A stretch of 64,000 nt of DNA, from contig OY760933.1 in assembly GCA_963664235.1 (NCBI GenBank), positions 2,395,419 to 2,459,418 on the forward strand. The letters run 5' to 3'. Source of the DNA: Acidimicrobiales bacterium. Lineage in GTDB: Bacteria > Actinomycetota > Acidimicrobiia > Acidimicrobiales > CATQHL01. The position numbers and the translations under genes are program-made. The notes under the pieces are model-generated. The model was not told the origin of the DNA, did not search any database, and saw only the letters and a program-made list of their open reading frames with translations. Shown piece after piece: positions 9,715-34,953 of the stretch; position 1 is the first letter of the stretch; each line of letters opens with the position of its first letter.

Positions 9715-9804
9715 TCGGGTTGTGGTGGACCTCCGCGGATTTCTGCAGGCAGGTGTGCCTCGGATTTCGCACGGTCAACTTGCTTGACTACGGGCCGGGT
9801 GGCG

Positions 9805-10885: not shown

Positions 10886-10933
10886 CGTTTCGGCGTTCGT
10901 CGCCCACTCCCTCCTCGGGCGTCCGCCGCGGCT

Positions 10934-13002: not shown

Positions 13003-13593
13003 TGAGGGGGACCCGTTTGTGAGTCCAGGTGTTATGGGAGTTCGGGTTGGTGTTGGTGCGCCTTCTAGTGCGCAGCGTAGGCGGCGGGGGTGAGCCCGCC
13101 GAGGGATCGGTGGGGCCGGTAGGTGTTGTGTTCGTGGCGCCAGTCCTCGAGGACGGCGCGGGCTTCGGTGATGTTGGCGAAGTCCTCAACGTTGAGGCAC
13201 TCGTCTCGGAGGCGGCCGTTGAAGGACTCGATGAAGGGTGTTTCCCACGGCGAGCCGTGTTCGATGTAGGCGGTTTGGGTGCGCCAGATGCGGCACCAGT
13301 CCCGCAGCGCCTCGGCGGTGAGTTCGGGGCCGTTGTCCATGCGCAGATGCGCCGGCGCTCCCCTCCCGGCGACGAGGCGCTCGATGGTGGCGACGACGCC
13401 GTCGGCGTCGATGCTGTGGGAGGCGTCGATGGCGAGGGCCTCCCGGGTGAACTCGTCGACGACGTTGAGCAGTTTGATGCGGCCAGATCGGCGGTCTCGT
13501 CGAACTGGAAGTCCAGTGCCGACACATCGTTGGGACGCTGGGCGCGCAGGCGCGCCGCAGACCCGTCAGTGAACCGTCCTGGTCTGCCCGGAG
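13003..13593 (-). pseudogene. IS3-family orfB remnant, frameshifted and interrupted by a second IS3 element
   Basis: RPNDVSALDFQFDETAD, then a frame break, then IKLLNVVDEFTREALAIDASHSIDADGVVATIERLVAGRGAPAHLRMDNGPELTAEALRDWC..YRPHRSLGGLTPAAYA. The terminal ..CCCCTCA end lies near 13003. Confidence 0.7.
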
Positions 13594-13617
13594 TGGTGTG
13601 CCACGGGTGTTGCGTAG

Positions 13618-14459
13618 TCAGCTTGCTTGATTTCGGGCAACGGTGGTGGTGTGGCGGATCTCGTATTCGACGGGCGTGAGCATGCCGAGTGAGGAGTGCC
13701 GCTGTTGCCGGTTGTGGAAGATCTCAAGGTAGTCGAAGATCGCATTGGAGAGTTCCAGACGGGTTCTCCAGCGCCGGCGGTTCAGGAGTTCGACTTGCAT
13801 GCGCGCCCAGAACGACTCGATCACGGCATTATCGAGGCAGTCCCCGATCGAGCCCAGCGACACGCTGAGCCCGCAGTCCAGGGCGCGTTGGGTGAATGCC
13901 CAGGAGGTGAACTGACCGGATTCAATCGGTGGTCGGAGTGAATGATTGACCCGGAGGGTTGGCGGTTCTCGATGGCCATGGCGAGTGCATTGGTGGCGAG
14001 GGTGGCGTGTGGCCGCGAGCCGATGGCCCAACCCATGACGCGGCGACTGAAGACATCCAGCACGACCGCGCAGTACACCTTGCCTTCCCGGGTGGAGTGC
14101 TCGGCAATATCGGTGACCCACAGCTGATCGGGCTCGTCACGGGCGAACTGGCGGTCGACCAGGTCACTGGCGGTGGGCTGGTTGGGGACCTTGCGCCAGC
14201 GGGACCGGCCCGGCAGCCCCGCCAGACCGTTGCGGCGCATCACCAGCTCAACGGTGCAACGCGCGACGATGATGCCGCGTCCCTGGGTCAACTCGGCGTG
14301 GACGCGCCGGGCGCCGTCGGTGCCTCGGGAGGCGTGATGGATCTCACCAGTGACCTCCAGCAGCATCGCGTGGCGCACCGAGCGCGCTGACGGCGGCCGC
14401 CGGCGCCAGGCGTAGTAGCCCGACACCGAGATGCCCAACACGCCGCAGCAAACCTCCAC
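13618..14459 (-). pseudogene. IS3-family transposase OrfB with an extra frameshift
   Basis: The -1 frame relative to orfA reads RFEVVAAVVADDHPVEVCCGVLGISVSGYYAWRR..LWVTDIAEH..IIHSDH. The frame then breaks near 13930 and resumes as GQFTSWAFT..DNAVIESFW..RRHSSLGMLTPVEYE. Confidence 0.7.
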
Positions 14460-14473
14460 CGGATGGTCGTCAG

Positions 14474-14818
14474 CTACGACGGCGGCGACGACCTCGAAAC
14501 GTCTATTGGGTCGGTTTGGTCCTTCAGCAGCTCATTGGCCCGCTTGGTGACCGCCAATTCACACTTGAGTTCGCGGATCCGCTGACGAGCCGCAGCCAAC
14601 TCCGCGGACTCCGCTGTCGTCACGCCGGGCCGCAGCCCGCGATCCACCTGATCCTGCTTGCGCCAGTTGTAGATCGTCTGGGTCGACACGCCGAGTTGGT
14701 CAGCGACCTCCGCGACGGGCCGACCCGCCTCGATCAGATCCAGAACCTTGCGCCGAAACGCAGTTGGATACCTCCTCGGCACGATGACCTCCCTTCGGTC
14801 GACGTGCCCGAAAGTCAA
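14474..14818 (-). CDS. IS3-family transposase OrfA
   Basis: VPRRYPTAFRRKVLDLIEAGRPVAEVADQLGVSTQTIYNWRKQ, followed by a coiled-coil. The likely true start is the GTG at 14782, after GGAGG. Confidence 0.8.
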   Translation of the reverse strand: MTFGHVDRREVIVPRRYPTAFRRKVLDLIEAGRPVAEVADQLGVSTQTIYNWRKQDQVDRGLRPGVTTAESAELAAARQRIRELKCELAVTKRANELLKDQTDPIDVSRSSPPS

Positions 14819-14957
14819 CTATCCCGACCGCGCGATACCCGTGGCACACCATTGTCTGCCCCGTGTTTCTTGCGGTCGGCTTGCTTGATCTCGGGCGGCG
14901 GTCGTGTCATTGACGTGCTGAGCAAATTGCTTGGTGCTGGCTGCAGCACTCAGCTAG

Positions 14958-16121
14958 TTACGCCACGGCAGTTCCGATGTAGGTGGCCCATTGGTCCATG
15001 ACGGGTCGGCGGCGGTCGAGGAGGTCGCTGCGCTGGTAGGCGCCTTCGACGCCGGCGACGACGTGTCCGAGTGCGGCTTCGGCGACCTCGCGGGGGACGC
15101 CGGTGTCGGCGCACCAGCTACGGAAGCTGGCCCGGAATCCGTGCGGTACCGCCGGGATGCCGAGATCCATGAGCAGCTTGCGCATGGTGTTGTTGGAGAG
15201 TTGCCGGCCCGTCGTGCTCGGGAAGATCAACCCGGACCGGTCGGCGAGGCTCCGGGCTGCTTCGAGGATCTCCAGGGCGCGGCCGCTGAGGGCCACGCGA
15301 AGCTCGCCACCGGTCTTCGTGCGGGCTCCGGGAACCGTCCACGTGGCCGCGTCGGCGTCGACTTCATCCCAGATGGCGCCGCGGAGCTCGCCGCTGCGAC
15401 ATGCGGTGAGGACGAGGAACTCGAAGGCGAGCTTGGTTACCGGCGACGCTTGCGACGCACGGACACCAGCGACGGCGGCGGCCACCTCGCTGTGCGGCAG
15501 GGAGGGTTGGCGATTCTGGCGGGTGTCTTGGCGTGGGAGGGCGGCGGCGATGGCGCCGCTGGCCGGGTCGTCGGTGCGGTGTCCTTGGGCGATGGCCCAG
15601 CGCATGATGACCGAGATGCGCTGGCGCACCCGTTTGGCGGTCTCGGCCCGTTCTGTCCAGATCGGCGCCACGATGCTCATGACGTCCGCGGTGGTGATCT
15701 CGTCGACCGGCTTGTGGCCGATCTTGGGGTAGGCGTAGGTGTCCAGCGACGATCGCCAGATCTCCGCGGAGCGGCCGCTGTTCTTCCAGGAGGCGGCGTG
15801 GATCAGAATGACCTTCTCCGCGGCGTCCGCGAACGTCGGCACCCCGCTGACGCGGGGGTGGCGGCCCTCTTCGACGGCGCGGCGGTTCTCAAGCGCTTTG
15901 CGCCGCGCCATCTTGAGGCTCACGATCGGGTAGGAGCCGAGGCCGAGGTTGGTGACGCGCCCGTTGATGCGGATGCGCTGGCTCCAGGTCTTCGACAGGC
16001 GCCCGTTCGCCATCGGCTTGACGAGCAGTGACAGGCCGAATCCGCCGCGGCCGTCGCCGTAGCGGCCGGGGCGCGAAACGCTCTCCACGAAGCGCGCCGA
16101 CAGCTGCGCGGGACGCTCCAA
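14958..16121 (-). CDS. int: P4-type tyrosine recombinase/integrase
   Basis: N-terminal RYGDGRGGFGLSLLVKP..GSYPIVSLKMAR (DUF4102-like). Catalytic ACRSGELRG, HGFRASFRSW and GAYQRSD. Lies directly 3' of ssrA. Confidence 0.9.
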   Translation of the reverse strand: MERPAQLSARFVESVSRPGRYGDGRGGFGLSLLVKPMANGRLSKTWSQRIRINGRVTNLGLGSYPIVSLKMARRKALENRRAVEEGRHPRVSGVPTFADAAEKVILIHAASWKNSGRSAEIWRSSLDTYAYPKIGHKPVDEITTADVMSIVAPIWTERAETAKRVRQRISVIMRWAIAQGHRTDDPASGAIAAALPRQDTRQNRQPSLPHSEVAAAVAGVRASQASPVTKLAFEFLVLTACRSGELRGAIWDEVDADAATWTVPGARTKTGGELRVALSGRALEILEAARSLADRSGLIFPSTTGRQLSNNTMRKLLMDLGIPAVPHGFRASFRSWCADTGVPREVAEAALGHVVAGVEGAYQRSDLLDRRRPVMDQWATYIGTAVA

Positions 16122-16289
16122 GGTTCGATTCCCTCCCCGCTATCACCGATCAGATATTGCTTAGATTATCACACTTTGCATGCGTACCGATGATACGAGT
16201 TGAAGCCTCGTGGAGCAAGGATTAGGCCGCTGACCTGGGATTTGTGGGCTTCATGGCGCATCATGGGGTCTCATGAAGCCTCAAAGTTG

Positions 16290-16674
16290 TGGAGCTGGGG
16301 GGAATCGAACCCCCGTCCGGCGAGCGGTTGCCGGCTCCGGTACGACCATTCCCGATCGCAGCATTACGGATTGCGTGCCGTCGGGTCGGCTGCCCTTGCG
16401 GGCTCCGCCGGATCTTTCTCCGGTGTCAGCGGTCTTTCTCGCCGTCAGCGGTCTTTCCCAGCTGTCCTCCTCTGCTTCTGTTGCCAGGCTGCAGCGGACA
16501 GGCCCCGCGTGCCCCCGTGGGGGTCGCAGTTACCTCACAGACCGATCAGGTGATCAGGCTGCGAGGAGCACGGGTTCATCATTGCCGTGTCTTGTGGTGC
16601 CCCGTTTTTGGAGTCTGAGCAACTCCGGTCGCGTAGCACGGTTCCCGGTCTCGACGTCGAAACCGATCAGCCCC
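16290..16674 (-). ncRNA. ssrA: tmRNA
   Basis: 5' GGGGCTGATCGGTTTCGAC.. and 3' ..GGGGGTTCGATTCCCCCCAGCTCCA. The acceptor stem has a G3:U wobble. CCA is not encoded. Internal reading frame GGC AAT GAT GAA CCC GTG CTC CTC GCA GCC TGA (GNDEPVLLAA*). Confidence 0.85.
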
Positions 16675-16790
16675 TTGTCAATGTGCGGTACGCCACTGTA
16701 CCGACCTCGTGCGACATCGGTCGGCGCTGATCCGTCCTCTCCGGGGTCCCAACGTGGGAGCGTCCGGATCTGCTGCCGTCCTCGGCAGGC

Positions 16791-16870
16791 TGTCGCTGTA
16801 CGGGCACATTGTCCTGTTGTCGTTGTACGACGATATTGTGCTGTTGTCGCTGTACCAGTACATTATTGTC
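16791..16870 (+). promoter_or_regulatory. three 27-bp direct repeats immediately upstream of hipB (operator candidates)
   Basis: TGTCGCTGTACGGGCACATTGTCCTGT / TGTCGTTGTACGACGATATTGTGCTGT / TGTCGCTGTACCAGTACATTATTGTC, starting at 16791, 16818 and 16845. Confidence 0.5.
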
Positions 16871-17197
16871 ATGTCCCTGAACGAAGACACGACGGAAGCT
16901 GCGGCTCCAAGTCGCTCGGAGGTTGGGATGAGACCGCTGCAAACGAGTCGGGACCTCGGTATGGCCATCCGCCGAGCGCGACATGACAAGGGCCTGTCGC
17001 AGGTCGAGTTGGCGGCGCGGGCAGGGGTGGGGCGTCCCTGGCTGTCCGAGACGGAGAACGGCAAGCGCACAGCGGAGATCGGTCGCATCCTGCTGGTCCT
17101 CAGTTCGCTGGATCTCGCGGTCGCTCTGATTCCAGCGCCGACACAGGGCGATGCCGGCGTCGACCTCGATTCTCTGCTGGCGGACACGGTCGGCTGA
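16871..17197 (+). CDS. hipB: XRE-family HTH antitoxin HipB
   Basis: LGMAIRRARHDKGLSQVELAARAGVGRPWLSETENGKR. The stop overlaps the hipA ATG (TGATG). The start could instead be near 16928 (MRPLQ). Confidence 0.7.
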   Translation: MSLNEDTTEAAAPSRSEVGMRPLQTSRDLGMAIRRARHDKGLSQVELAARAGVGRPWLSETENGKRTAEIGRILLVLSSLDLAVALIPAPTQGDAGVDLDSLLADTVG

Positions 17198-18483
17198 TGC
17201 CGGCTGACGTGCTGCTGGTCGCCCTCGAGGGGCGCTCCATCGGCCGGATCGAGCGCGCCCAACACGGTCACCTGCGGCTCCGCTACGACGATGGAATCGA
17301 TGCCGCCGGGACGCCGCTGTCGGTGTCGATGCCGTTGGCTGTTGCGCACCACGGCGACGCCCGCGTCACGCCGTGGCTGTGGGGGATTCTCCCGGAGAAT
17401 GCGGACGTCCTGGCGCGCTGGGGGCGCCGGTTCGGGGTCTCGGTGGCGTCGCCGTTCCCGCTTCTTGCCACACCCGTGGGTCGGGACTGCCCAGGAGCGG
17501 TGCAATTCTGCCCGCCGAGCGAACACGAGAACCTGCTGAGGCGCCAGGGCGACGTGGCCCCCCAGACCGAGGCACAAGTGGCCCAGCGGCTGCGAGACCT
17601 GCGCGGCGACGCCACCTCCTGGCTCGGGTCGGACTTCGCGGGACGGTTCAGCCTCGCCGGCGCGCAGGCAAAGACAGCGCTGCACTTCGCGTCGGGACGC
17701 TGGGGTGTTCCGGCGGGGGCGGTGCCCACGACTCACATCCTCAAGCCCGGTATCTCGGGACTTCAGCATCTCGAACTCAACGAGCACCTCTGCCTGCGTA
17801 CCGCGGCCCTCGCTGGACTGCCTGCGGCACGCACCAGGATCGAAACCTTCGAGGATCAAACCGCCATCGTCGTCACGCGGTTCGACCGCACGCACTCCGG
17901 TGGTTCGCTGATCCGCGTGCACCAGGAAGATCTCTGCCAGGCGCTCGGAGTGCACCCTGCCCGCAAGTACCAGGCCGACGGCGGCCCGACCCCCGGCCAC
18001 GTGGCGGAGTTGCTGCGGGCATGCGTCGCCGGAGCCGCCGCCGAGGAGGACGTGTGGCGATTCGCCGACGCGTTGGCGTTCAACTGGCTGATCGGTGGCA
18101 CCGACGCCCATGCCAAGAACTACAGCCTGCTGCTTGCCGGAACCCGGGTGCGTCTAGCTCCGCTCTACGACGTGGCGTCGACGCTCCCCTACGACGACAG
18201 CGACGGCCACCAACTCCGTCTCGCCATGAAGGTCGGCCGGGAGTACAGGCTGCGACGAACCGATAGGCGCAGCGCATGGGAGAAGGTCGCAGCCGAGCTG
18301 GGCGTCGACGCCGCTCGGCTGCTCCAGCGGGTGCTGGACCTCGCCGGGAAGATCCCCGCGGCGCTGGAGCAGGCAACGGCCGAGGAGGATGTGGCGAGGA
18401 TCGAATCCGATCTCCCGCGGCGGCTATTGGACGGCGTTGCCGCACGCGCGCTCCACTGCGCCCGGTCCTTCAACGCGGGCTGA
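17197..18483 (+). CDS. hipA: HipA-family serine/threonine kinase toxin
   Basis: FSLAGAQAKTAL, HILKP, IRVHQEDLCQALG and GGTDAHAKNYSLL (catalytic D.H.KN). Confidence 0.85.
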   Translation: MPADVLLVALEGRSIGRIERAQHGHLRLRYDDGIDAAGTPLSVSMPLAVAHHGDARVTPWLWGILPENADVLARWGRRFGVSVASPFPLLATPVGRDCPGAVQFCPPSEHENLLRRQGDVAPQTEAQVAQRLRDLRGDATSWLGSDFAGRFSLAGAQAKTALHFASGRWGVPAGAVPTTHILKPGISGLQHLELNEHLCLRTAALAGLPAARTRIETFEDQTAIVVTRFDRTHSGGSLIRVHQEDLCQALGVHPARKYQADGGPTPGHVAELLRACVAGAAAEEDVWRFADALAFNWLIGGTDAHAKNYSLLLAGTRVRLAPLYDVASTLPYDDSDGHQLRLAMKVGREYRLRRTDRRSAWEKVAAELGVDAARLLQRVLDLAGKIPAALEQATAEEDVARIESDLPRRLLDGVAARALHCARSFNAG

Positions 18484-19535: not shown

Positions 19536-20486
19536 ATGGGTGTCCACGCCTCGGTAATCGACTGCATCGGCAACACGCCGGTCATCGACGTCAGCGCCCT
19601 CAGCCCCAACCCGGCGGTGCGCATCCTCGCCAAGCTGGAGGGCCAGAACCCCGGCGGCTCGGTGAAGGACCGGGTCGCCCGCTCGATGATCGAGGCCGCT
19701 GAGGCCGACGGCACGCTGCGGCCCGACACCACCATCCTGGAACCGTCCTCGGGCAACACCGGCATCGCCCTGGCGCTGATCGCCCGGCTGCGGGGCTACC
19801 CCGCCAAGATCGTCCTGCCCACCAACGTCTCCAGCGAGCGCCGCGACCTGCTGGAGATCTACGGCGCCGAGATCATCGACTCGCCGGGCGCCGAGGGCTC
19901 CAACGGGGCGGTGCGCCGGGCCGAACGTCTCGCCGCCGAGCATCCCGAATGGGCCTACCTGTGCCAGTACGCCAACGAGGCCAACCCCCGGGCGCACTAC
20001 GACACCACCGGCCCGGAGATCCTCGCCGACTGCCCCGACATCACCCACTTCGTGGCCGGCCTGGGCACCGCCGGCACGCTCATGGGCGTCGGCCGCTACC
20101 TCAAGGAACACAAACCCGACGTGAAGGTCTACGCCGTGGAGCCCCCGGCGGGGGAGAAGGTGGAAGGTCTGCGCAGCCTCGACGACGGCTACATCCCGCC
20201 CGTGTACGAGAACTGGGGCGGCAACGAACTGCTGGACGGCAAGCGCATCGTGCGCACCCGCGAGGCGCTGGAGTACACGCGCCGACTGGCCACCGAGGTC
20301 TCGGTGTTCGCCGGCATCTCCAGCGGGGCCGCCCTGGCCGGGGCCTGCCGGGTGGCGGAGCGCATCGACTCCGGGGTGATCGTCTTCGTGGCCGCCGACG
20401 GTGGCTGGAAGTACCTCTCGACGCGTGCCTGGACCGACCCCATCGAGGACGTCATCGAACGCGCCGAGCGCATCATCTACTTCTGA
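19536..20486 (+). CDS. cysM: PLP-dependent cysteine synthase (CysM/CysK family)
   Basis: GNTPVI..KLEGQNPGGSVKDR, SSGNTGIALA and GLGTAGTLMG. Confidence 0.85.
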   Translation: MGVHASVIDCIGNTPVIDVSALSPNPAVRILAKLEGQNPGGSVKDRVARSMIEAAEADGTLRPDTTILEPSSGNTGIALALIARLRGYPAKIVLPTNVSSERRDLLEIYGAEIIDSPGAEGSNGAVRRAERLAAEHPEWAYLCQYANEANPRAHYDTTGPEILADCPDITHFVAGLGTAGTLMGVGRYLKEHKPDVKVYAVEPPAGEKVEGLRSLDDGYIPPVYENWGGNELLDGKRIVRTREALEYTRRLATEVSVFAGISSGAALAGACRVAERIDSGVIVFVAADGGWKYLSTRAWTDPIEDVIERAERIIYF

Positions 20487-20524: not shown

Positions 20525-20558
20525 AACACCTCTGGATTCCGGCGTTCGCCGGAATGAC
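20525..20558. repeat. REP-like hairpin element (the 'IPAFAGMT' repeat)
   Basis: AACACCTCTGGATTCCGGCGTTCGCCGGAATGAC is the reverse complement of the copy at 26446-26477. Core hairpin ATTCCGGCG-NNN-CGCCGGAAT. Confidence 0.7.
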
Positions 20559-20648: not shown

Positions 20649-22589
20649 TCAGCCGGTGGGCTGCTCGGCGGGCGGACCCATGTCGTCCATGTCGCCGTCG
20701 TCCATGCCGTCGGCTGCGTCGTCGTCCATGTCGCCGTCGTCCATGCCGTCGGCTGCGTCGTCGTCCATGTCGCCGTCGTCCATGTCGTCGTCCATGTCGG
20801 CGGACGAGTCGAGGATCGTCACACGGCCCTCGCCGCCGGACGGGTACTGCTCGGCCGTCACGACGCCGCCGAGGGCGTCGGTGAGGTAGTCGGCCAGCGC
20901 GCGCTGGTCGTTGATGCCCAGCTTGGTGTGCGGCAGGTCGCCAGCCGGGAAGCAGTCGCCGCCGCCGGCGAACCAACTCACCGTCGTCATTACGACCGGA
21001 TCACCCGGCACCACCTCGCCGTCTTCGACGATGACCGTGCCGTCGTCGAGGACGATGCTGCGCACGCGGGATCCCTCGTCGCCGATGTTGGAGCAGTCGC
21101 CCTCACGGTCGGTCTCCCGAGCCGGCATGCCCATGTCGATGACCAGGCTCATGCCCGCCACCTGCGAGTACTGCCCGCAGGTTCCCGGGATGCAGTCGTA
21201 GGACACCTCCATTGCCGCCTTCAGTCGCTCGCGGGTCATCTCGAAAGTGACCATCACGTTGTTGAACGGCGAGATGTCGAAGGTCGTGGACTCGCTGAGG
21301 TCGCTGCCGGCGGGGATGATGGAGTCGTTGCGGATGCCGCCGCCGCCCTGGATGGCGATGTCCGGCGTCGCGGTGCCGTACTCCTCGGCCCGCTCGGTGC
21401 CCACCCAGAGGGAGGCGTCGGCGACCAGGTTGCCCTGGTTGGTCTCACGCGTGCGGACCTGCGAACGCCGGCCGTCGAGGTCCACCTCGGTGGTTGCCAG
21501 GATGTTGCTGTCCAACGCCGCCACGGCTGCCGCCAGTGGCTCTTCCACGGCCGCCAACACGTCGGGGTCGGGGGTCTCGTCGAGGCTCACGCCCACCGAG
21601 CGGCCCGCGGCGGAAACCACGTTGCCGTCGGCGTCGAAGGTGACGGTGAGCTCGCCGATGCAGCGGTAGCCGCCGGGTGCGGTGATGACCGGCACGGTGT
21701 TGCCGTCGGCGTCGGTTGCCTCCAGCGGGTACGGGCCGGCGGTCTCCTCCTCGGGCAGGCAGGTGCTGGTGTCGCTGCGCAGCATCTCGTCGCCGCCGCC
21801 GCCGATGGCCACGTCGACGCCGGAGATGGAAGCGAGCGCCTCCACGTCCTCGTCCACCTGCTGCAGGTGGCTGATGAGGATGATCTTGTTGACGCCTGCC
21901 TCGGTGAGGGAGGCGACCTCGGCGTTGACCGCCTCGGCGACCGCCGACACGACGGCGTTGCGCGGCGCGGAGATGGCTCCCAGCATCGGGGTGATGGCGC
22001 CGATGACGCCGACCTTCTCGCCGCCGGTCTCCACGATCGTGCTGCGGGCGAGGCGCCCGGCCTCAACCATCGCCACGAGCGCCGGCTCGGCCGACACGTC
22101 CAGGTTGGCCGACAGGAAGACCACCGGCGGGTCGAAGCCCTCGAAGAACTCCGCCGCCACGTCGGGGCCGAAGTCCATGTCGTGGTTGCCCACCGCCATG
22201 GCGTCGTACAGGCCACTGAGAGCGATGGAGTCGTAGAACGGAGCACCACGCTCCAAGCTGACGTTCCACTCCTTGGACGCCAGGAAGTTGTCGCCGGCGG
22301 TGACGGTGAGAACGCCGTCGGTGTCCGCACCCTCCTGCAGGTTCCGCAGAGCGGTCACGAACCGGGCGATACCCGGGAAGCCCCTGTCCGCGTTGTGCAG
22401 CAGCTTCGACTCGCCGTCGTTGTTGTGCAGGATGGTGAGCGTGTAGTCCGCGTTGTCCTGGGCGTTGAGCGCGGTTGGCGCCAGCGCCGTAACGGAGACG
22501 AGCAGTCCGAGCGCCGCCAGCACGACGGCGGGCTTGCGCCACCTGGTTCGATTTGTGTTTCCCCTAGTGGGGACGGTCTTTTTGGTCAT
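20649..22589 (-). CDS. secreted bifunctional metallophosphatase/5'-nucleotidase with acidic repeat tail
   Basis: Signal peptide [34 protein letters not shown] and GNHDMDFG metallophosphatase motifs, plus a 5'-nucleotidase C-domain. Tail [39 protein letters not shown]. Confidence 0.85.
20688..20790. repeat. 39-bp tandem repeat (about 2.5 copies) encoding the D/M-rich tail
   Basis: CATGTCGCCGTCGTCCATGCCGTCGGCTGCGTCGTCGTC at 20688 and 20727, then a partial copy. Confidence 0.8.
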
Positions 22590-25566: not shown

Positions 25567-26244
25567 GTGGCCCGCGATCAGATTATCGGTAGCCTGCGCG
25601 CAGGACGTCCGGGAGGTGTGCCGGTGGAATTGTCAGCTCTTGGACTGCCGGGCGCGCCCGACGCGGCCCGCAACGAGGACGCCGCCAAACGGGACGGTTC
25701 CCCGGACATCTTCCAGCAACTGCTGCGCCAGCGGATCGTGTTCCTGGGGCGCGCCGTGGACGACGAACTGGCCAACTCCGTCACCGCCCAACTGCTGTAC
25801 CTCGAGGGCCAGGACCGCAACCGCGACATCTGGATGTACATCAACTCACCGGGCGGTTCGATCACCTCGGGCATGGCCATCTACGACACCATGCAGTTCG
25901 TCACCCCCGACGTCGGCACCGTCTGCATGGGTCTCGGCGCCTCCATGGCGCAGTTCCTGCTGTGCGCCGGCGCCGCCGGCAAGCGCTACGCCCTGCCGCA
26001 CGCCCGCATCCTCATGCATCAGCCCCACGGCGGGGTTCAGGGTCAGGCCTCCGACATTGCCATCCAGGCCGAGCAGATGACCTACATCAAGAAGATCCTG
26101 GCCGAGCGCATCTCCGAGCACACCGGCCAGCCGGTCGATCAGGTCGAGGCCGACTTCGACCGGGACCGCTGGTTCACCGCCGAGCAGGCCAAGGAGTACG
26201 GCATCATCGACGAGGTGATCGCCAACCGCGGCGAGATCCGCTAG
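25567..26244 (+). CDS. clpP: ATP-dependent Clp protease proteolytic subunit
   Basis: RIVFLG..YINSPGGSITSGMAIYDTM..GLGASMAQFLL..ILMHQP..DRDRWFTAEQAKEYG. The true start is probably the GTG at 25624, after GGAGG. Confidence 0.9.
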   Translation: MARDQIIGSLRAGRPGGVPVELSALGLPGAPDAARNEDAAKRDGSPDIFQQLLRQRIVFLGRAVDDELANSVTAQLLYLEGQDRNRDIWMYINSPGGSITSGMAIYDTMQFVTPDVGTVCMGLGASMAQFLLCAGAAGKRYALPHARILMHQPHGGVQGQASDIAIQAEQMTYIKKILAERISEHTGQPVDQVEADFDRDRWFTAEQAKEYGIIDEVIANRGEIR

Positions 26245-26316
26245 TTCGAGGTGATCGCCAACCGCGGCGAGATTCACCAGTCCGAGGTGATCGCCAACCG
26301 CGGCGAGATCCGCTAA
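26212..26316 (+). repeat. 36-bp tandem repeat x3 re-copying the clpP 3' end
   Basis: GAGGTGATCGCCAACCGCGGCGAGATCCGCTAG at 26212, then in-frame copies at 26248 (no stop) and 26284 (TAA). Confidence 0.9.
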
Positions 26317-26445: not shown

Positions 26446-26477
26446 GTCATTCCGGCGAAAGCCGGAATCCAGGTGTT
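26446..26477. repeat. REP-like hairpin element (the 'IPAFAGMT' repeat), second copy
   Basis: GTCATTCCGGCGAAAGCCGGAATCCAGGTGTT, surrounded by degenerate TTCCGGCGG-containing units over about 26400-26600. Confidence 0.7.
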
Positions 26478-26924: not shown

Positions 26925-28598
26925 GTGGGCCGGGAGCTTCAGAGAGAACGAGGGGACGGACAGGTGGGTGACGGACAGGTGGGTGACGGACAGGTGGGTG
27001 ACGGACAGGTGGGTGACGGTCCGATGCGGGGGAAACCGCACAGCGCTGACCGACCGGGCCGCGAGCCGGCCGGGACAGCTCCGGCGAACAGCGAACCGGC
27101 CGGGACAGCTCCGGCGAACAGCGAACCGGCCGGGACAGGTCCGGTCGGCCGCGAACCGGCCGGGACAGGCCCGGTGGGCCGCGAGCCGGTCGGGACAGCT
27201 CCGGTGGGCCGCGAGCCGGTCGGGACAGCTCCGGTGGGCCGTGAGCCGGTCGGGGCAGCTCCGGCGAACAGCGAGCCGGCCGGGGCAGGCCCGGTGGGCC
27301 GTGAGCCGGCTGGGGATGTTCGGGGCGGCGAGTGGGCTGCTTTGGGTGAGTGGCTGGTTTCGCGGCCGCTGTTGCCCAAGGTCGATCTGGGTGTGTTGCG
27401 GGAGTGTTTGGGGTTCGTGGGCCGGGCGCGGGCGTCGCTTGCCGCCCTGGAGGCCGACGTGGTCGCCGAGGTGGCGCGCCGCGAGGGCGACGCTGCCACT
27501 GAGGAGTTCCTGCGGCGGGATCAGAAGCGTTCGCGGAGAGAGGCCCGTAAGGCCGTCAAGGTCGCGGGACAGTTGGGGTGGGCGCCGCGGGTGGCCGACA
27601 AACTTGCCTCCGGTGAGATCACTCCCGAAGCGGCGGGGCTGATCCTCGATGCCGACGCCGAGACGCCGGTGGACCAACGCAAGTTGCTGGCCGCCGCTGA
27701 GACCGAACCCGACGACGTGTTCCGCCGCACGTTGAAGGACCACGTCAACGAACGCACCACCGAACAGGAACTCGAAGCGCGGCGGGCTCAGCAGCGGCGC
27801 CGGCGGCGGGCTTCGATCGGCGAGCAGCCCGACGGCATGTTCCACCTCTTCGCCCAGTTCGACCCGCTCACCGGGGCGCGGGTGCAGGCCGCGCTCATCG
27901 CCAAGTCCGACGAACTGTTCCGCAACGAGGACTCCACGGACCGCCCGACGGCACCCCAGCGGTTCGCGGATGCGCTCGCAGACCTCGTGTGCACCAACAA
28001 CGGCGCCGGCGCACCAGCCGGAACCGAGTTGATCGTCCTGGCCGACTACGACCAGGTCCACGACGAGATCACCAACACCCGACTGGCTGACGGCACCCGC
28101 CTCACCGAAGCCGAAACACTCGCGGCGGCGTGCGACGCCAGGATCCTGCCGGGCATCTTCAACAAACACACCGGCAACGTCGTCCTGGGCCGCTCGCAGC
28201 GCAAGGTCCCCCCGTGGCTGCGCAAACAACTCATCGCACGCGACGGCGGCTGCATCGGCTGCGGCGCCCACCACCAGATCTGCGAAGTCCACCACATCAA
28301 GCACTGGAAACACGGCGGCGAAACCACCCTCGAGAACACCTGCCTGCTGTGCTGGCGCTGCCACCACATCCGCCTCCACCGAAACGGCGAAGAAATCACC
28401 CGCCACCCCGACGGCACCCTCACCCTCACACCACCCGCCAACCCGCCTCCCGAACCGACAGGACCGGCAGGTGGCAAACAGACAGACCGGCGCGAACCGC
28501 GAGACAGCGGCGAACACCACCGCCCGACCAGTCGCCAGCGACGCGGACCACCCCGGATCCCCGAAACGAACCCAGCCAGCCCCTTGTCGTTGGGCTGA
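26925..28598 (+). CDS. DUF222 / HNH endonuclease (REP13E12-like); start uncertain
   Basis: DUF222-like LAALEADVVAEVARREG..GEITPEAAGLI. HNH motif CIGCGAHHQICEVHHIKHWKHGGETTLENTCLLCWRCHHIRLH. The N-terminal 130 aa are tandem repeats and may not be translated. Confidence 0.8.
   Translation: MGRELQRERGDGQVGDGQVGDGQVGDGQVGDGPMRGKPHSADRPGREPAGTAPANSEPAGTAPANSEPAGTGPVGREPAGTGPVGREPVGTAPVGREPVGTAPVGREPVGAAPANSEPAGAGPVGREPAGDVRGGEWAALGEWLVSRPLLPKVDLGVLRECLGFVGRARASLAALEADVVAEVARREGDAATEEFLRRDQKRSRREARKAVKVAGQLGWAPRVADKLASGEITPEAAGLILDADAETPVDQRKLLAAAETEPDDVFRRTLKDHVNERTTEQELEARRAQQRRRRRASIGEQPDGMFHLFAQFDPLTGARVQAALIAKSDELFRNEDSTDRPTAPQRFADALADLVCTNNGAGAPAGTELIVLADYDQVHDEITNTRLADGTRLTEAETLAAACDARILPGIFNKHTGNVVLGRSQRKVPPWLRKQLIARDGGCIGCGAHHQICEVHHIKHWKHGGETTLENTCLLCWRCHHIRLHRNGEEITRHPDGTLTLTPPANPPPEPTGPAGGKQTDRREPRDSGEHHRPTSRQRRGPPRIPETNPASPLSLG
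26956..27015 (+). repeat. 15-bp tandem repeat x4
   Basis: ACGGACAGGTGGGTG repeated. Reads GDGQV x4 in the HNH frame. Confidence 0.9.
27061..27320 (+). repeat. 30-bp tandem repeat, about 8.5 copies
   Basis: GCGAGCCGGCCGGGACAGCTCCGGCGAACA and variants, starting every 30 bp from 27061. Reads as decapeptide repeats (EPAGTAPANS / EPAGTGPVGR). Confidence 0.9.
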
Positions 28599-28610: not shown

Positions 28611-29297
28611 CTAGCCGTGTCGGGCGGTTTCGGCTCGCTGGCGCAGGTCGGTGACCGCGGCGGCCAGGCCGTCGGGATGGCCGAAGACGGCGCTGCCGGC
28701 CACGAAGACGTTCGCCCCTGCGGCGGCCGCACCTGCCACGGTCCCCGAGCCGATACCGCCGTCCACCTCGAGGTCGATCTCCCGCCCGGACTCGTCGATC
28801 ATCCGGCGAACCTCGGCGATCTTGGGCTCCATCGTGGCGATGTACTTCTGACCGCCGAAGCCGGGATTCACCGTCATCACCAGCACCATGTCCGTGAGGT
28901 CCAGCACCTGGGCCACGGCGGCAGCCGGGGTCGACGGGTTGAGCGCCACACCGGTGGCAGCCCCCAGCCCCCGGACCTGCTCGAGAGTGCGGTGCAGGTG
29001 GACGCACGCCTCGGCGTGCACGATCAGCAACTCACATCCCGCCTCCACGTAGCGGCCTGCCAGCGCCTCGGGCGCCTGCACCATGAGGTGCACCTCGAAC
29101 GGCAGGGACGTGTGCGGGCGGGAGGCGGCGATGACGTCCGGGCCGAACGTGATGTTCGGCACGAAGGCGCCGTCCATGACGTCCCACTGGATCCGATCCG
29201 CCCCGGCGGCCTCCAGCGCGGCGCAGTCCGCTCCGAGCCGGCTGAAATCGGCACTCAGCGTGGAAGGCACAATCCGGATCGGCGGGTTCGTCGTCAT
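28611..29297 (-). CDS. rpe: ribulose-phosphate 3-epimerase
   Basis: IVPSTLSADF..DVMDGAFVPNITFG..HLMV..MTVNPGFGGQ..VDGGI. Confidence 0.9.
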   Translation of the reverse strand: MTTNPPIRIVPSTLSADFSRLGADCAALEAAGADRIQWDVMDGAFVPNITFGPDVIAASRPHTSLPFEVHLMVQAPEALAGRYVEAGCELLIVHAEACVHLHRTLEQVRGLGAATGVALNPSTPAAAVAQVLDLTDMVLVMTVNPGFGGQKYIATMEPKIAEVRRMIDESGREIDLEVDGGIGSGTVAGAAAAGANVFVAGSAVFGHPDGLAAAVTDLRQRAETARHG

Positions 29298-29334
29298 GGT
29301 GAGCCGTGGCGGGGAGGGGACGGGACCCCGTCAG

Positions 29335-29793
29335 GCTACTTCCCGGTCGATTGCACGCCGGGGAGCAGTGGGACGATGGCCGCGGGCTACTTCCCGGTCG
29401 CCCGCACGCCGGGGAGCAGTGGGACGAAGGCCGCGGGCTACTTCCCGGTCGATTGCACGCCGGGGAGCAGTGGGACGATGGCCGCGGGCTACTTCCCGGT
29501 CGATTGCACGCCGGGGAGCAGTGGGACGATGGCCGCGGGCTACTTCCCGGTCGATTGCACGCCGGGGAGCAGTGGGACGATGGCCGCGGGCTACTTCCCG
29601 GTCGATTGCACGCCGGGGAGCAGTGGGACGATGGCCGCGGGCTACTTCCCGGTCGATTGCACGCCGGGGAGCAGTGGGACGATGGCCGCGGGCTACTTCC
29701 CGGTCGATTGCACGCCGGGGAGCAGTGGGACGATGGCCGCGGGCTACTTCCCGGTCGCCCGCACGCCGGGGAGCAGTGGGACGAAGGCCACAG
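29335..29793 (-). repeat. 51-bp tandem repeat x9, each unit a copy of the pcm 3' end including the stop codon
   Basis: Units start at 29335, 29386, and so on to 29743 (exact 51-bp period). On the minus strand each unit reads (I/F)VPLLPGV(Q/R)(S/A)TGK*. The ninth unit is the authentic pcm terminus. Confidence 0.9.
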
Positions 29794-30448
29794 GCAACAG
29801 CCCGGCGCGGCGCCGCGGCGCGAGACCCGACGACCCGTCACCGAACGCCCCGGCGCCCGGAGCCGGCATCTCGTACAGCGCCAATTGCTGGTCCCGCCCG
29901 GTCGCACCGACGGGCGCCACCAGCCGGCCACCCTCTGCCAGCTGCCCGAACAGCGCCGCGGGCACGCTGGGCGCAGCCGCGGAGATGAAGATGGCGTCAT
30001 ACGGAGCACCCGGCGGGTGGCCCTGCGCCCCATCGGCCCACACCACCGTCACGTTGTCGAAACCGAGATCGCGCAGCCGTGCCCGGGCATCGGCGGCCAG
30101 GGATTCGATCCGTTCCACGGCGACCACCTCGGCGGCCAGACGGCTCGCCACCGCTGCCGCATATCCCGAGCCGGCGCCGATCTCCAGCACACGATCGGTG
30201 GGCGCCAGCCGCAGTGCCGCCAGCATTACGGCCACCACGTACGGCTGCGAGACGGTCTGGCCGAATCGCAGCGGCAGCGCCCGGTCGGCGTAGGCGCTGC
30301 GCCGCTGGCCGGCCGGGACGAACGCCTCCCGGGGCACCGAGCCCATCGCCTCCAGCACCCGCTCGTCGCGCACGCCACGCCCGGCGAGATCCTGGCGCAC
30401 CATCTCCGCCCGGCGGGCGTCGAACGGCGGTTGTGGTCGGGTCTTCAT
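29744..30448 (-). CDS. pcm: protein-L-isoaspartate O-methyltransferase
   Basis: ATG at 30448. RVLEAMGSVPREAFVP, TVSQPYVVA, VLEIGAGSGYAAAV and FVPLLPG. Confidence 0.85.
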   Translation of the reverse strand: MKTRPQPPFDARRAEMVRQDLAGRGVRDERVLEAMGSVPREAFVPAGQRRSAYADRALPLRFGQTVSQPYVVAVMLAALRLAPTDRVLEIGAGSGYAAAVASRLAAEVVAVERIESLAADARARLRDLGFDNVTVVWADGAQGHPPGAPYDAIFISAAAPSVPAALFGQLAEGGRLVAPVGATGRDQQLALYEMPAPGAGAFGDGSSGLAPRRRAGLLPVAFVPLLPGVRATGK

Positions 30449-30555
30449 GGCGCTGGCGCTCCCCGGTGGGTCGAACCGCAGATCCGCGCCCGGCGGGTCC
30501 GCAGACGAACACCTCGGCCGGACCGTACCACCGCCTCCGCAGCGGTCTCCGACCA

Positions 30556-30861
30556 GTGATCCGCGGCGGTGAGGGGCCTCCCGTCGTGTGGAGCGTCCCC
30601 CGTCCGGTGATCCGCGGCGGTGAGGGGCCTCCCGTCGTGTGGAGCGTCCCCCGTCCGGTGATCCGCGGCGGTGAGGGGCCTCCCGTCGTGTGGAGCGTCC
30701 CCCGTCCGGTGATCCGCGGCGGTGAGGGGCCTCCCGTCGTGTGGAGCGTCCCCCGTCCGGTGATCCGCGGCGGTGAGGGGCCTCCCGTCGTGTGGAGCGT
30801 CCCCCGACCAGTGATCCGCGGCGGTGAGGGGCCTCCCTTCGTGCGGAGTCTCCCCCTACTG
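30556..30861. repeat. second, unrelated 51-bp tandem repeat x6 in the pcm/thpR divergent intergenic region
   Basis: GTGATCCGCGGCGGTGAGGGGCCTCCCGTCGTGTGGAGCGTCCCCCGTCCG, starting at 30556, 30607, 30658, 30709, 30760 and 30811. The last unit degenerates into the thpR leader. Confidence 0.9.
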
Positions 30862-30868
30862 TGGAGCG

Positions 30869-31399
30869 ATGCCCCGGCTGTTCGTGGCCGTCTGGCCGCC
30901 CGGCGACGTGATGGACGCCTTGGCCGCCCTGCCGCGGCCAACTTTCCCGGGCGTGCGGTGGACACCTCCCGAGCGCCTCCACGTAACCCTTCGGTTCTTC
31001 GGCGCCGCGGACGAGGAGACCGTCGTCGACAGACTGTCCGGTGAGCGATTCGCGCCGGCCGCCGTGCACATGGGTCCGGGCGTGGAGCGACTCGGTCGCG
31101 GGGTCCTCGTCGTGCCGGCCCGCGGCCTGGAGGATCTGGCTGCCCGGGTCGTGGAGGCGACCAGCCACATCGGCCAACCCCCGCTGGACCGCCCCTTCCA
31201 CGGTCATGTGACCGTCGCCCGCCACAAGGGTCAGCCGCCCGGTGAGTACGCGCCGCAATTCCAGGCCGACTTCGACGCCACCGAGATCGCCCTCGTACGC
31301 AGCCACCCACCCGGCAACTACACGAACGTGGCGACATTCGCCTGCCCTGAGCCGACCACCGAGGGAGACCATCCCGAGCGCGACCAGGCGGTCTCCTAG
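30869..31399 (+). CDS. thpR: RNA 2',3'-cyclic phosphodiesterase (2H phosphoesterase, LigT/ThpR)
   Basis: MPRLFVAVWPP, with two HxT motifs (HVTLRF and HVTVAR). Confidence 0.75.
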   Translation: MPRLFVAVWPPGDVMDALAALPRPTFPGVRWTPPERLHVTLRFFGAADEETVVDRLSGERFAPAAVHMGPGVERLGRGVLVVPARGLEDLAARVVEATSHIGQPPLDRPFHGHVTVARHKGQPPGEYAPQFQADFDATEIALVRSHPPGNYTNVATFACPEPTTEGDHPERDQAVS

Positions 31400-31401
31400 C
31401 A

Positions 31402-32886
31402 TTGGCGTCCGTGGCTGATTCATTGCCGGGATCAGAAGACGCTCTGCTCGACGGCTACGAGCCGGGTGGAGGCTTCGACGAGGCCTTCGACGCCGACGGA
31501 TCGGTCCGGGGTGCCTACAGCAAGATCGTCGAGCGTTTCGGGGAACTCGACGCGGGCGAACTGCGCCGGCTCGAACGGCTCGTCGCCGACGAGTTCCGCC
31601 GCCAGGGCATCACGTTCACCGTGTACAGCGAGGAGGAGGGCACCGAGCGAATCTGGCCGATGGACCTGTTCCCGCGGCTCATCGCGGCCCGCGAGTGGGA
31701 CGAACTCGAACGGGGCCTCACCCAGCGCGTTACCGCCCTCAACTGTTTCCTCGCGGACCTTTACGCCGGGGAGGGTGCGGCCGTCGCCGACGGGGTGGTC
31801 CCGCGTTGGCTGGTGGTCTCCTCCGGCGGTTTCGAGCGCAACGCCATGGGGATCTCGGTGCCGCACGGCGCGCACTGCAACGTCGCCGGGATCGACATCG
31901 TGCGCGACGACGGTGGCCGCTACCGGGTGCTCGAGGACAACCTGCGCAACCCCAGCGGCATCTCCTATGTGATCGAGAACCGGGCGGCGATGGCCAAGGC
32001 GTGCAGCTGGCTGTTCTACGACCACGCCGTGCAGCCGGTGGAGCAGTACGGGCGGATGCTGCGCGCCACCCTGGAGTCGATGGCGCCCGGCGGCCAGGAC
32101 TCCCCGCAGGTGGTGGTGCTGACCCCCGGTATCTTCAACTCGGCCTACTTCGAGCACGCCTTCCTGGCCCGCTCGATGGGTGTCGAGTTGGTGGAGGGCC
32201 GCGACCTCGTGGTCGACGGCGGCACGGTGTTTGCCCGGACCATCGAGGGGCTCATCGCCGTGGACGTGATCTACCGGCGCATCGACGACGCCTTCCTGGA
32301 CCCGGTCGCCTTCCGGCCGGACTCCACATTGGGCGTCCCCGGGCTGCTCGGCGCGCTCCGGGCCGGGACCGTGACCGTCTGCAACGCGATCGGCAACGGT
32401 GCCGTCGACGACAAGGCGGTCTACCCGTACGTACCCGATCTGATCAGGTACTACCTCGGCGTCGAGCCGATCATCGACAACGTCCCCACCTACATGATGT
32501 GGGATCCCGACCAGCGGGCCGAGGCGCTGGGGCGGCTCGATGAGTTGGTAGTCAAGCCGGTGGGGGAGTCGGGCGGTTACGGGGTGCTGATCGGGCCCCA
32601 CGCCAGCGACGAGGAGCTGGAGGCCGCCCGCGCCGCCATCGACGCCGATCCCCGGAACTGGATCGTGCAGGAGGTCGTGCAACTCTCGAGCCTGCCGTCG
32701 TTCACCCAGGAGCGTCTCGAGCCCCGCCACGTGGACCTGCGGCCCTTCGTGTTGACCGGCGAGCGGACCGAGGTTTTCCCCGGCGGTCTCACCCGCGTGG
32801 CGATGCGGCGCGGATCGCTCATCGTGAACTCCTCCCAGGGTGGCGGCTCGAAGGACACCTGGGTGCTGACACCGGAGTACTCGTAG
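31402..32886 (+). CDS. circularly permuted type-2 ATP-grasp protein
   Basis: Family recognised from YSKIVERF..FRRQGITFTVY..ERIWPMDLFPRLI..VICNAIGNG-like (TVCNAIGNGAVDDKAVYPYVP)..VVKPVGESGGYGV. Confidence 0.8.
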   Translation: MASVADSLPGSEDALLDGYEPGGGFDEAFDADGSVRGAYSKIVERFGELDAGELRRLERLVADEFRRQGITFTVYSEEEGTERIWPMDLFPRLIAAREWDELERGLTQRVTALNCFLADLYAGEGAAVADGVVPRWLVVSSGGFERNAMGISVPHGAHCNVAGIDIVRDDGGRYRVLEDNLRNPSGISYVIENRAAMAKACSWLFYDHAVQPVEQYGRMLRATLESMAPGGQDSPQVVVLTPGIFNSAYFEHAFLARSMGVELVEGRDLVVDGGTVFARTIEGLIAVDVIYRRIDDAFLDPVAFRPDSTLGVPGLLGALRAGTVTVCNAIGNGAVDDKAVYPYVPDLIRYYLGVEPIIDNVPTYMMWDPDQRAEALGRLDELVVKPVGESGGYGVLIGPHASDEELEAARAAIDADPRNWIVQEVVQLSSLPSFTQERLEPRHVDLRPFVLTGERTEVFPGGLTRVAMRRGSLIVNSSQGGGSKDTWVLTPEYS

Positions 32887-33946: not shown

Positions 33947-33984
33947 AGCTGGATCGGTGAGGCACGACCTGTGAGGCACGACCC

Positions 33985-34953
33985 GTGAGGCTGGATATCC
34001 GCTACCGGATGCACTTCCGGTACTCCAGGCCGGTCCGCGAGTCGCAGAACGAAATGCGGGTCCGCCCCCGGGACGACGAGACGCAGCGTGTCTTGTGGTC
34101 CCGGCTGACGACGGAGCCGCCGACGCAGGTGTTCAGCACGTTCGACTACTGGGGTACCGCGGTCGACCACGTCGGCGTCAGGACCCCGCACCCGTCACTC
34201 GAGTTGGTTGCCGAGACGTCGGTCGAGACCTCGGCCCGCCCGGTGCCGGCGCCCGACGCTCCGGTCGAGGGCTTGTCGAGCCCCGGCTTCCGCACCGCCC
34301 ACTTCGAGTTCCTGGAACAGTCGGAGCACGTCCAATGGCACCCCGGTGACGGTGTCGCCGAGAGGGCCGCCGCGGTAGCCGAAGGGGCCCTGTCAGTACA
34401 GGAACTTCTGGCGGCGGTGGTGGCGGCGGTTCGGGGAACGCTCCGCTACGAGTCCGACACGACCGACATCGGCGTGTCGCTGGAGGAGTTGCTCTCCGGC
34501 GGGGTCGGGGTCTGCCAGGACTTCGCGCACCTGGCGATCGGGATGCTGCGCAGTGTCGCCGTGCCCGCCCGCTACGTGTCGGGCTACCTCTTCGCCGCCG
34601 ACGAGACCGCCACCGGAGAGGAGACCGCGGACGTGGTGAGCGTGCAGACCCACGCCTGGGTCGAGGCGGCGGTACCCGGTGTGGGCTGGTGGGCGCTGGA
34701 TCCGACCAACGGCGGCGAGGTGGGGGAGCGGCACGTCGTCATCGGCTGGGGACGGGACTACAGCGACGTGCCACCCGTTCGCGGGGCGTTCATGGGCGGG
34801 GCCTCAGCCGAAGTCGAGGCCGAGGTGGTCATCGGCCGGCGACGGTCCGACGAGCCCCAATCAGCCCCCGGCCGCCACAGCCGCCCCCGCGTCCTGGTGA
34901 ACGACCCCCCACCGCCACCCCCCACCCACCAACACCAGCAACAGCAGCAATAG
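33985..34953 (+). CDS. transglutaminase-family protein with a Pro/Gln-rich tail
   Basis: N-terminal bacterial TGase-N-like region. GVCQDFAHL (Cys), HAWVEA (His), LDPTN (Asp). Tail PPPPPPTHQHQQQQQ. Confidence 0.85.
   Translation: MRLDIRYRMHFRYSRPVRESQNEMRVRPRDDETQRVLWSRLTTEPPTQVFSTFDYWGTAVDHVGVRTPHPSLELVAETSVETSARPVPAPDAPVEGLSSPGFRTAHFEFLEQSEHVQWHPGDGVAERAAAVAEGALSVQELLAAVVAAVRGTLRYESDTTDIGVSLEELLSGGVGVCQDFAHLAIGMLRSVAVPARYVSGYLFAADETATGEETADVVSVQTHAWVEAAVPGVGWWALDPTNGGEVGERHVVIGWGRDYSDVPPVRGAFMGGASAEVEAEVVIGRRRSDEPQSAPGRHSRPRVLVNDPPPPPPTHQHQQQQQ

Follow-up and report, generated by a model that had tools for sequence, protein, structure and literature searches.

Why does the end of one gene stand nine times in a row before the start of the next gene of its operon? 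The question was raised by 64,000 nucleotides of an Acidimicrobiales bacterium (contig OY760933.1, forward strand, positions 2,395,419 to 2,459,418), numbered here from the first letter and called the window as a whole. In the window, the spacer between pcm, coding for protein-L-isoaspartate O-methyltransferase, and rpe, coding for ribulose-phosphate 3-epimerase, is occupied by a tandem array with a period of 51 bp. We concluded that the array is probably a bacterial variable-number tandem repeat (VNTR), or minisatellite, made by tandem duplication of a 51-bp segment that holds the last 16 codons and the stop codon of pcm.

Structure and origin of the pcm-rpe array

Cut in the pcm frame, the array consisted of nine 51-bp units on the minus strand, each closed by an in-frame TAG. 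The genes, units and spacer were as follows.

29744..30448, minus strand: pcm, 234 aa, stop TAG at 29744-29746, Pfam PCMT match with E=7.7e-57
29744..29794, minus strand: unit 0, the native last 16 codons and TAG of pcm, PVAFVPLLPGVRATGK and stop, variant A, starting with CCTGTGGCC
29438..29743, minus strand: units 1-6, six identical variant-B copies, PAAIVPLLPGVQSTGK and stop, each opened by the junction CCCGCGGCC
29387..29437, minus strand: unit 7, a variant-A copy, PAAFVPLLPGVRATGK and stop, equal to unit 0 save for 2 nt in the junction (CCCGCGGCC)
29336..29386, minus strand: unit 8, the last variant-B copy, PAAIVPLLPGVQSTGK and stop, adjoining the native downstream flank CCTGACGG
29298..29335, minus strand: native pcm-rpe spacer, 38 nt; its orthologue in single-copy relatives is their entire 33-39-nt spacer (by-eye alignment of the window with L083, L087, L088 and L089)
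28611..29297, minus strand: rpe, 228 aa, downstream in the operon, Pfam Ribul_P_3_epim match with E=5.7e-70

A repeat search of the window gave a constant spacing of 51 nt, and the units abutted without spacers. In Tandem Repeats Finder (TRF), the array spanned 29334-29789; its period was 51, its copy number 8.9 and its score 856, with matches at 97% and indels at 0%. The 36-nt core of the unit occurred nine times here and nowhere else in the 64 kb, compared with zero occurrences in 100 dinucleotide-preserving shuffles. The units were thus head-to-tail direct repeats of constant period and high identity, as in a VNTR. A sequence-only reading of the window had reported nine exact units, eight of them extra copies of the pcm end with its stop codon, and this was borne out. 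Its positions were off by one, the true limits being 29336-29794.

Units 1-6 and unit 8 were mutually identical. Unit 0 differed from all other units in 2 of its first 9 nt (CCTGTGGCC compared with CCCGCGGCC), and variants A and B were separated by four base differences (TTC/ATC and CGGGCG/CAATCG). The pcm-rpe gap had been described as made up entirely of copies. Copies do fill this operon spacer, but not entirely: of the 446 nt between the pcm stop and the rpe ATG (29297), 408 nt were extra copies and 38 nt were unique, native spacer.

The Pfam PCMT match ended at residue 192, and the C-terminus was therefore compared with homologues. The window's pcm matched P0001 (234 aa), a singleton cluster, at 100%, and the named homologues were metagenome-assembled genomes labelled Acidimicrobiia or merely 'bacterium'. 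The pcm C-terminus ends with ..VAFVPLLPGVRATGK and stop. In the alignment of 22 homologues, F222, V223, P224 and L225 were invariant, and the consensus C-terminus of the close pcm family was ..LLPVAFVPLLPGVR.TGK. Because the C-terminus was conserved in these homologues, unit 0 is, judged from the alignment, the authentic pcm end, of which the remaining eight units are copies. This agreed with the earlier claim that the unit was derived from the real gene end.

Long spurious open reading frames (ORFs) of 300-560 aa crossed this array and a second 51-bp array upstream of pcm in several frames (28617-30293, plus; 29032-30033, minus; 29083-29988, plus; 29306-30559, plus; 29744-31423, minus). One of them was a 559-aa pcm with an N-terminal extension, and automated annotation could call such ORFs repeat proteins. 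Gene callers are at risk here, with long spurious ORFs running through the array in five other frames, and so are short-read assemblies at the pcm-rpe locus.

History of the duplication among relatives

Genome contigs were scanned with a profile built from close pcm homologues; the matches listed were distant PCMT loci (47-60% identity; L002-L081), uninformative for the pcm-rpe array. A scan of metagenomes for the junction pattern yielded one locus, L086. The synteny of pcm and rpe was kept in every related contig fetched, and the loci were as follows.

L083, L087, L088, L089 and L090: outgroups with one pcm end and a 33-39-nt spacer that aligned with the last 38 nt of the window's spacer; pcm nucleotide identity to the window about 82-84% for L083, L088 and L089
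L084: outgroup, pcm nucleotide identity about 81%, one copy without duplication, unrelated 161-nt spacer
L091, L092 and L093: long-read contigs (3.69 Mb, 81 kb and 2.95 Mb), pcm 89%, exactly two units, the second decayed (CCCGCGGCCCTCGTCCCCCAGCTCCCCGGTCTGCGATCCGACGGGAAGTAG), 89-nt spacer
L082: short-read contig, pcm 89%, ending 17 nt into the second unit, so that only the junction was visible
L001 and L086 (MKWU01003494.1): pcm about 92% (L001), rpe about 93% in both, about 2.9 copies, rearranged

In L001 and L086, the native unit was followed by 29 nt of a second unit and then by a jump at a CCCCGG microhomology to a full end with stop. The jump landed 18 nt upstream of unit 0, giving an offset of 47 nt, and the last copy in L086 was decayed. 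The orthologous locus therefore held one, two, about 2.9 or nine units, which is the variable copy number of a VNTR.

Every duplicated locus shared the same junction, a stop codon followed by CCCGCGGCC. In the outgroups L087 and L088, the native unit started with CCCGTAGCC and CCCGTGGCC (CCCGT(A/G)GCC), and CCTGACGG followed the stop. Compared with these native sequences, the junction was equal to TAGCC joined to CGTGGCC after one T>C change. The CCTG found after the array was also the start of unit 0. The unit was thus taken from adjacent unique sequence with short homology at its boundaries, as in other VNTRs, the microhomology being only 2-4 nt. Since the junction was common to all duplicated loci and lay one substitution away from TAGCC plus CGTGGCC, we infer that the duplication arose once, in the ancestor of the sub-clade, and was then decayed, rearranged or expanded. 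One-step intermediates between CGGGCG of variant A and CAATCG of variant B occurred as native states of relatives (CGAGCG in L001; CGATCG in L082, L086 and L091-L093), and variant B fits an array that was evolving over time.

Slipped-strand mispairing or unequal recombination at short direct repeats is the general mechanism of tandem duplication in bacteria. The present array resembled its products in the microhomology at the endpoints (GCC/CCTG here; CCCCGG in the secondary event of L001 and L086), in copy-number change by unit steps and in the homogenisation of units, and no mechanistic difference was evident from the junction sequences. The founding step would have been one illegitimate or slipped-strand event in the ancestor of a small Acidimicrobiia-like sub-clade. 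It may have occurred between the 2-4-nt microhomologies ..TG-CC/CGTGGCC.. and ..TAG-CC/TGACGG.. (slash, joining point), leaving a second copy and the junction TAG-CCCG(T>C)GGCC. The two-copy state would then have decayed in some lineages (L091-L093, and the last copy in L086 too), and a secondary rearrangement in L001 and L086 would have used the CCCCGG microhomology. In the lineage of the window, the copies would have been homogenised against the native copy. Expansion to nine would have proceeded by replication slippage or by unequal homologous exchange between units, and the six identical variant-B units would represent the latest expansion.

Such an array can be tolerated, because a duplication across the stop codon leaves the immediate surroundings of either gene as they were. 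pcm is still ended correctly by the first unit, the last unit and the 38-nt spacer keep the native upstream sequence of rpe, and the extra copies would form untranslated operon spacer. The sole effect to be expected would be a pcm-rpe distance raised from 38 to 446 nt, which could modestly alter the coupling or expression of rpe. We regard the array as a tolerated by-product, because copy number and unit organisation were not conserved among relatives; nothing in the sequences points to a function.

Several points weigh against this account. The founding microhomology is short (2-4 nt) and requires one later substitution, and the founding mechanism was read from junction sequences. The comparisons are compatible with either order of the 51-nt and the 47-nt-offset forms. 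Neutrality, in turn, was deduced from copy number and structure that were not conserved. Neighbouring expansions (three copies at the clpP end, 51 bp in six copies upstream of a LigT-like gene and 30 bp in 8.6 copies in an HNH endonuclease gene) were without counterpart in relatives, and slippage acting purely locus by locus does not explain them. Finally, the count of nine units came from one metagenome-derived assembly.

This last point would also agree with an artefact of long-read metagenome assembly, in which expansion or mis-joining made nine copies out of what are truly one or two units; relatives from long-read assemblies showed two units only. However, we consider an artefact highly unlikely. 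The duplication itself, if not the count, was seen through its junction in seven other independent assemblies. In addition, the internal structure, with a variant-A unit 7 amid B units, an exact 51-nt phase and no indels, was unlike a noisy consensus, and two other nearby arrays were equally clean.

Read as a tandem duplication, the array is a real and well-preserved yet ordinary minisatellite from the 3' end of a gene, of a kind already known. With the ten related loci, one can retrace how a bacterial minisatellite was born, decayed, was rearranged and expanded again, which makes the array a clean and datable example. The pcm-rpe array is also a potential strain-typing marker for an uncultured lineage.

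Function, mobility and known counterparts

The units were examined for structure and for regulatory sites. Folded as DNA on both strands, single units gave z values from -0.7 to +0.5 against dinucleotide shuffles, which meant no excess of stability. The whole array folded as RNA gave z=-1.9, and 4 of 100 shuffles were at least as stable. A hairpin or structured RNA, such as a palindrome of the repetitive extragenic palindromic (REP) or bacterial interspersed mosaic element (BIME) type, was rejected because the units folded no better than shuffles. At the gathering threshold, Rfam matched nothing at the arrays; its only matches in the window were a transfer-messenger RNA (tmRNA) and one tRNA. 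No sigma-70-like promoter or intrinsic terminator pattern was found in 28.4-31.5 kb. An array of clustered regularly interspaced short palindromic repeats (CRISPR) was rejected as well, because the units abut and have no unique spacers.

Among known systems, the array comes nearest to locus-specific VNTRs of actinobacteria, for example ETR-F/VNTR3239 in the rnc-fpg1 spacer of M. tuberculosis (PMC2734929). In the tuberculosis complex, the rnc-fpg spacer is occupied by repeats over 279-358 bp (Olsen et al. 2009, PMC2734929); it measures 1-6 bp in the majority of other mycobacteria, but 20 bp in the M. avium group and 54 bp in M. leprae (PMC2734929). Both arrays consist of head-to-tail repeats of tens of bp in an intra-operon spacer that measures a few or tens of bp in related species. 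Both vary between lineages in copy number and arrangement, show complex sub-repeat rearrangements and belong to a high-GC (guanine plus cytosine) actinobacterial host. They differ in that the pcm unit holds the last 16 codons and the stop of the upstream gene, whereas the ETR-F array begins 40 bp past the rnc stop. Moreover, the repeat length of ETR-F/VNTR3239 was correlated with the fpg1 mRNA level (PMC2734929); such mRNA data exist there, whereas the pcm array is known here from sequence alone.

The shared position with the rnc-fpg repeats (PMC2734929) and the lengthening of the distance from pcm stop to rpe start, from 38 to 446 nt, would suit a functional array that regulates the expression of rpe (or pcm) in the operon in a copy-number-dependent manner. 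By analogy, an effect of array length on rpe expression is possible. However, neither copy number nor unit structure was conserved, the second copy being in decay in L091-L093 and L086, and a spacer of 33-39 nt suffices in most relatives. The searches above gave no significant RNA or DNA structure, no promoter-like or terminator-like site and no Rfam match. A functional array was thus judged unlikely, and the tolerated by-product of tandem duplication was preferred.

The sequence-only reading had compared the array with MIRUs, a term reportedly used for mycobacterial interspersed repetitive units by Supply et al. in 1997 and 2000. MIRUs, repeats of 40-100 bp, form a family dispersed over 41 loci of M. 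tuberculosis H37Rv (PMC2734929). Their insertion apparently takes place at start codons and couples the ORF of the MIRU to the gene downstream, at a spacing of -4 nt (PMC12548453). In position, the comparison held. The array lies between co-oriented genes of conserved synteny (pcm and rpe, both minus), and it is like MIRUs, which are often tandem, in its polymorphic copy number and in a period within their size range (PMC2734929).

As to family, the comparison failed. The pcm unit is a local gene end, confined to a single locus within the sequence examined, whereas MIRUs are dispersed. Copies of the unit were found neither in the rest of the window nor at other fetched loci, and its matches in related loci were confined to the pcm 3' end and its duplicates. 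The in-frame stop that closes the last unit lies 38 nt ahead of the rpe ATG, and the unit carries no coupled ORF; a mini-ORF overlapping the flanking stop and start codons was not found in the pcm units, which overlap no start codon. The second 51-bp array shared no 21-nt core with related loci and by eye had no obvious similarity to the pcm unit. A MIRU-like mobile intergenic element inserting in operon spacers was therefore rejected, because the unit is the local gene end and has no other copies in the fetched loci; we regard such an element as extremely improbable.

Other arrays, their periods and their local excess

Clean arrays were present at five or more loci within a 10-kb part of the window, where ten relatives had one to three copies. 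The arrays near the pcm-rpe operon were as follows.

20682-20790, minus strand: 39 bp in 2.8 copies, coding, in the DDMDDG-rich acidic tail of a 5'-nucleotidase gene (20649-22589), ending 33 nt before the stop
26209-26316, plus strand: 36-bp period at the clpP end, the last 12 codons in three copies including stops, the third copy joining the native downstream flank
26955-27019, plus strand: 15 bp in 4.3 copies, perfect (GDGQV), in the 5' part of the HNH ORF, putatively coding
27056-27314, plus strand: 30 bp in 8.6 copies, also in the 5' part of the HNH ORF, putatively coding
30549-30854, plus strand: 51 bp in six copies, in the divergent spacer between pcm and a gene for a LigT-like 2'-5' RNA ligase

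The clpP copies read ..IDEVIANRGEIR and stop (DEVIANRGEIR-TAG), then FEVIANRGEIHQ, then SEVIANRGEIR-TAA, and the clpP end was a single copy in eight relatives. The sequence-only reading had seen the same phenomenon at clpP with a period of 36 bp, and coding arrays in the nucleotidase and HNH genes; all of these were present. The tail repeat of the 5'-nucleotidase differed in period and copy number in every relative (54, 33, 24 and 15 bp). The 30-bp array of the HNH ORF encodes EPAGTAPANS / REPAGTGPVG if translated, and L001 had a 30-bp array with 2.6 copies. A DUF222-HNH gene of L084 carried 15- and 18-bp arrays at its 5' end.

The array upstream of LigT ended 14 nt before the LigT ATG (30869), and its units 1-4 were identical. 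Comparison with L082 and L083 indicated that its last unit (unit 5) was the native copy. It had the same period as the pcm array, included no gene end and was absent from relatives, where its 21-nt core was unmatched in any fetched locus. Unit 5 adjoins a TACTGT box that closely precedes the ATG, a candidate -10 element of a leaderless LigT transcript.

It had been claimed that all periods were multiples of three and that this suggested a special process, acting at gene termini. Neither claim was supported. Among arrays of the clade outside protein-coding sequence, roughly 12 periods were not divisible by three (23, 19, 14 and 19 in the window; 47, 34 and 14 in L001; 77 and 19 in L084; 20 and 17 in L087; 19 in L089), compared with about five that were (36, 51, 51, 63 and 54 bp). 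This was near the one third expected by chance. The pcm locus itself had a period not divisible by three in the 47-nt offset of L001 and L086. Coding arrays have periods divisible by three because other periods are removed by selection.

Gene ends were duplicated in relatives as well. A 77-bp array of 2.4 copies in L084 (5373-5553) included the HNH stop, with a unit boundary at ..CCGCCGCTGA and stop, and in L086 (about 776-914) the last 19 or so codons and the stop of rpe were present twice. At pcm, the duplicated segment of 51 nt exceeds the native spacer of 38 nt in length, and a duplication that spares both genes must therefore take in a gene end. The same is expected of duplicated segments of 36-77 nt where spacers measure about 38 nt. 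A bias toward termini is thus expected without targeting, and purifying selection alone leaves it. The locus is an example of why arrays gather at gene ends in compact genomes, where only terminus-spanning duplications leave genes intact.

The excess of arrays itself was partly upheld. Seven arrays with a TRF score of at least 80 lay within 20.6-30.9 kb, about 1.4 kb in total, and were larger than those in the same genes of ten relatives. Over the syntenic 20 kb or so, the window held about 1.4 kb of arrays compared with 0.1-0.7 kb in relatives, with the coding 111-bp repeats of L083 set aside; the other 44 kb or so of the window was ordinary. Of the claim of a genome-specific process, what stood was the observation of more and larger arrays over about 10 kb; its arguments from periods and gene ends did not.

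Borg tandem repeats offer a measure for such a process. They are perfect and A-rich, dense genome-wide and almost wholly lacking in the genomes of their host, Methanoperedens (Schoelmerich et al. 2023, PMC9879509), and their coding arrays are always divisible by three, whereas only a minority of the intergenic ones are (PMC9879509). The window resembles them in having many independent arrays in one genome that evolve fast between relatives, in short flanking partial repeats, and in coding periods divisible by three with mostly indivisible intergenic ones. In contrast, the pcm units are GC-rich, with adenine at 8/51 bases (16%), the window as a whole having 68.8% GC. The arrays are also partly degenerate, and the pcm array itself has two variants and a divergent first unit. 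In addition, relatives carry arrays too, and the cluster seen here spans 10 kb.

A genome-specific, Borg-comparable process that generates near-perfect arrays preferentially at gene boundaries would account for the seven arrays and for several features matched in no relative: three copies at clpP, the LigT-upstream array, nine pcm units compared with 1-3, and 8.6 copies of the HNH 30-bp repeat compared with 2.6 in L001. Several of these arrays had units 96-100% identical. However, the other 54 kb or so of the window held only four weak arrays, and relatives shared the kinds of array, among them ones that take in gene ends, such as that of rpe in L086 and the HNH stop in L084; L091 had 11 arrays. 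Only about one third of non-coding periods were divisible by three, the GC-rich units had no compositional signature such as the A-richness of Borg repeats (PMC9879509), and the founding pcm duplication was old and shared, not genome-specific. The excess was moreover observed in 64 kb of this genome. Such a process is rather unlikely, and we give a small chance to a genome or immediate lineage in which minisatellites arise and expand at a raised rate, possibly focused on one region, as a counterpart on a bacterial chromosome to the repeat formation of Borgs. Should the local excess extend to the whole genome, this free-living actinobacterium would offer a modestly interesting example of repeat instability specific to a lineage.

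The array cluster contains the HNH endonuclease gene, which lies between the convergent rpe and clpP genes at these positions.

Window, 26925-28598, plus strand: HNH endonuclease gene
L001, 11810-13381: HNH endonuclease gene
L091, 11673-13103: HNH endonuclease gene
L086, 1 to about 640: HNH endonuclease gene

It was missing at the rpe-clpP site in L083, L084, L087, L089, L092 and L093; in L083, nothing is inserted and rpe overlaps clpP by 4 bp, and the DUF222-HNH gene of L084 lies elsewhere. From this distribution, the gene looks like a mobile, free-standing one. A link between the array cluster and the endonuclease through break-induced repair synthesis is conceivable. The gene was rejected as a present requirement for the pcm duplication, because L092 and L093 are duplicated without HNH at the site; its presence in an ancestor is possible. 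IscB was rejected as the identity of the protein (33 bits compared with a cut-off of 175, matching the HNH motif only). The GC-skew profile of the window had no origin-like or terminus-like switch to explain the cluster.

Further repeats were noted in the window and in relatives. A 14-bp repeat, not divisible by three, occurred in 2.5 copies at 33957-33991 (plus) and in 3.9 copies at 7228-7282 of L001; it fills the short Alpha-E / transglutaminase spacer of the CP_ATPgrasp operon and touches the adjacent gene ends. A 27-bp repeat of 2.4 copies (16791-16855, plus) precedes hipA, a toxin gene (17197-18483), at the place where one would expect a hipB-like helix-turn-helix gene. In L084, a 27/54-bp repeat (19713-19815) has the same position upstream of an HTH_31-hipA pair. 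These repeats may be candidate operator sites. A REP-like perfect hairpin, GTCATTCCGGCGAANGCCGGAAT, was dispersed through the window (20536-20558, minus; 26446-26468, plus) and through L001, L083, L084, L085 and L087, with zero chance matches expected in the window. It occupied intergenic spacers, sometimes as short tandem arrays (L087, 17133-17301), and in L084 it lay inside the pcm-rpe spacer.

A probable integrated element was located at about 5000-16700, adjoining the tmRNA gene (16287-16674, minus). Its genes include a tyrosine integrase (14958-16121, minus), an rve integrase fragment (13821-14459), an AAA_21/AbiEii-like ATPase (11473-12999) and an IS110-family transposase (5074-7041), and the GC content falls to about 0.645 over 6-14 kb.

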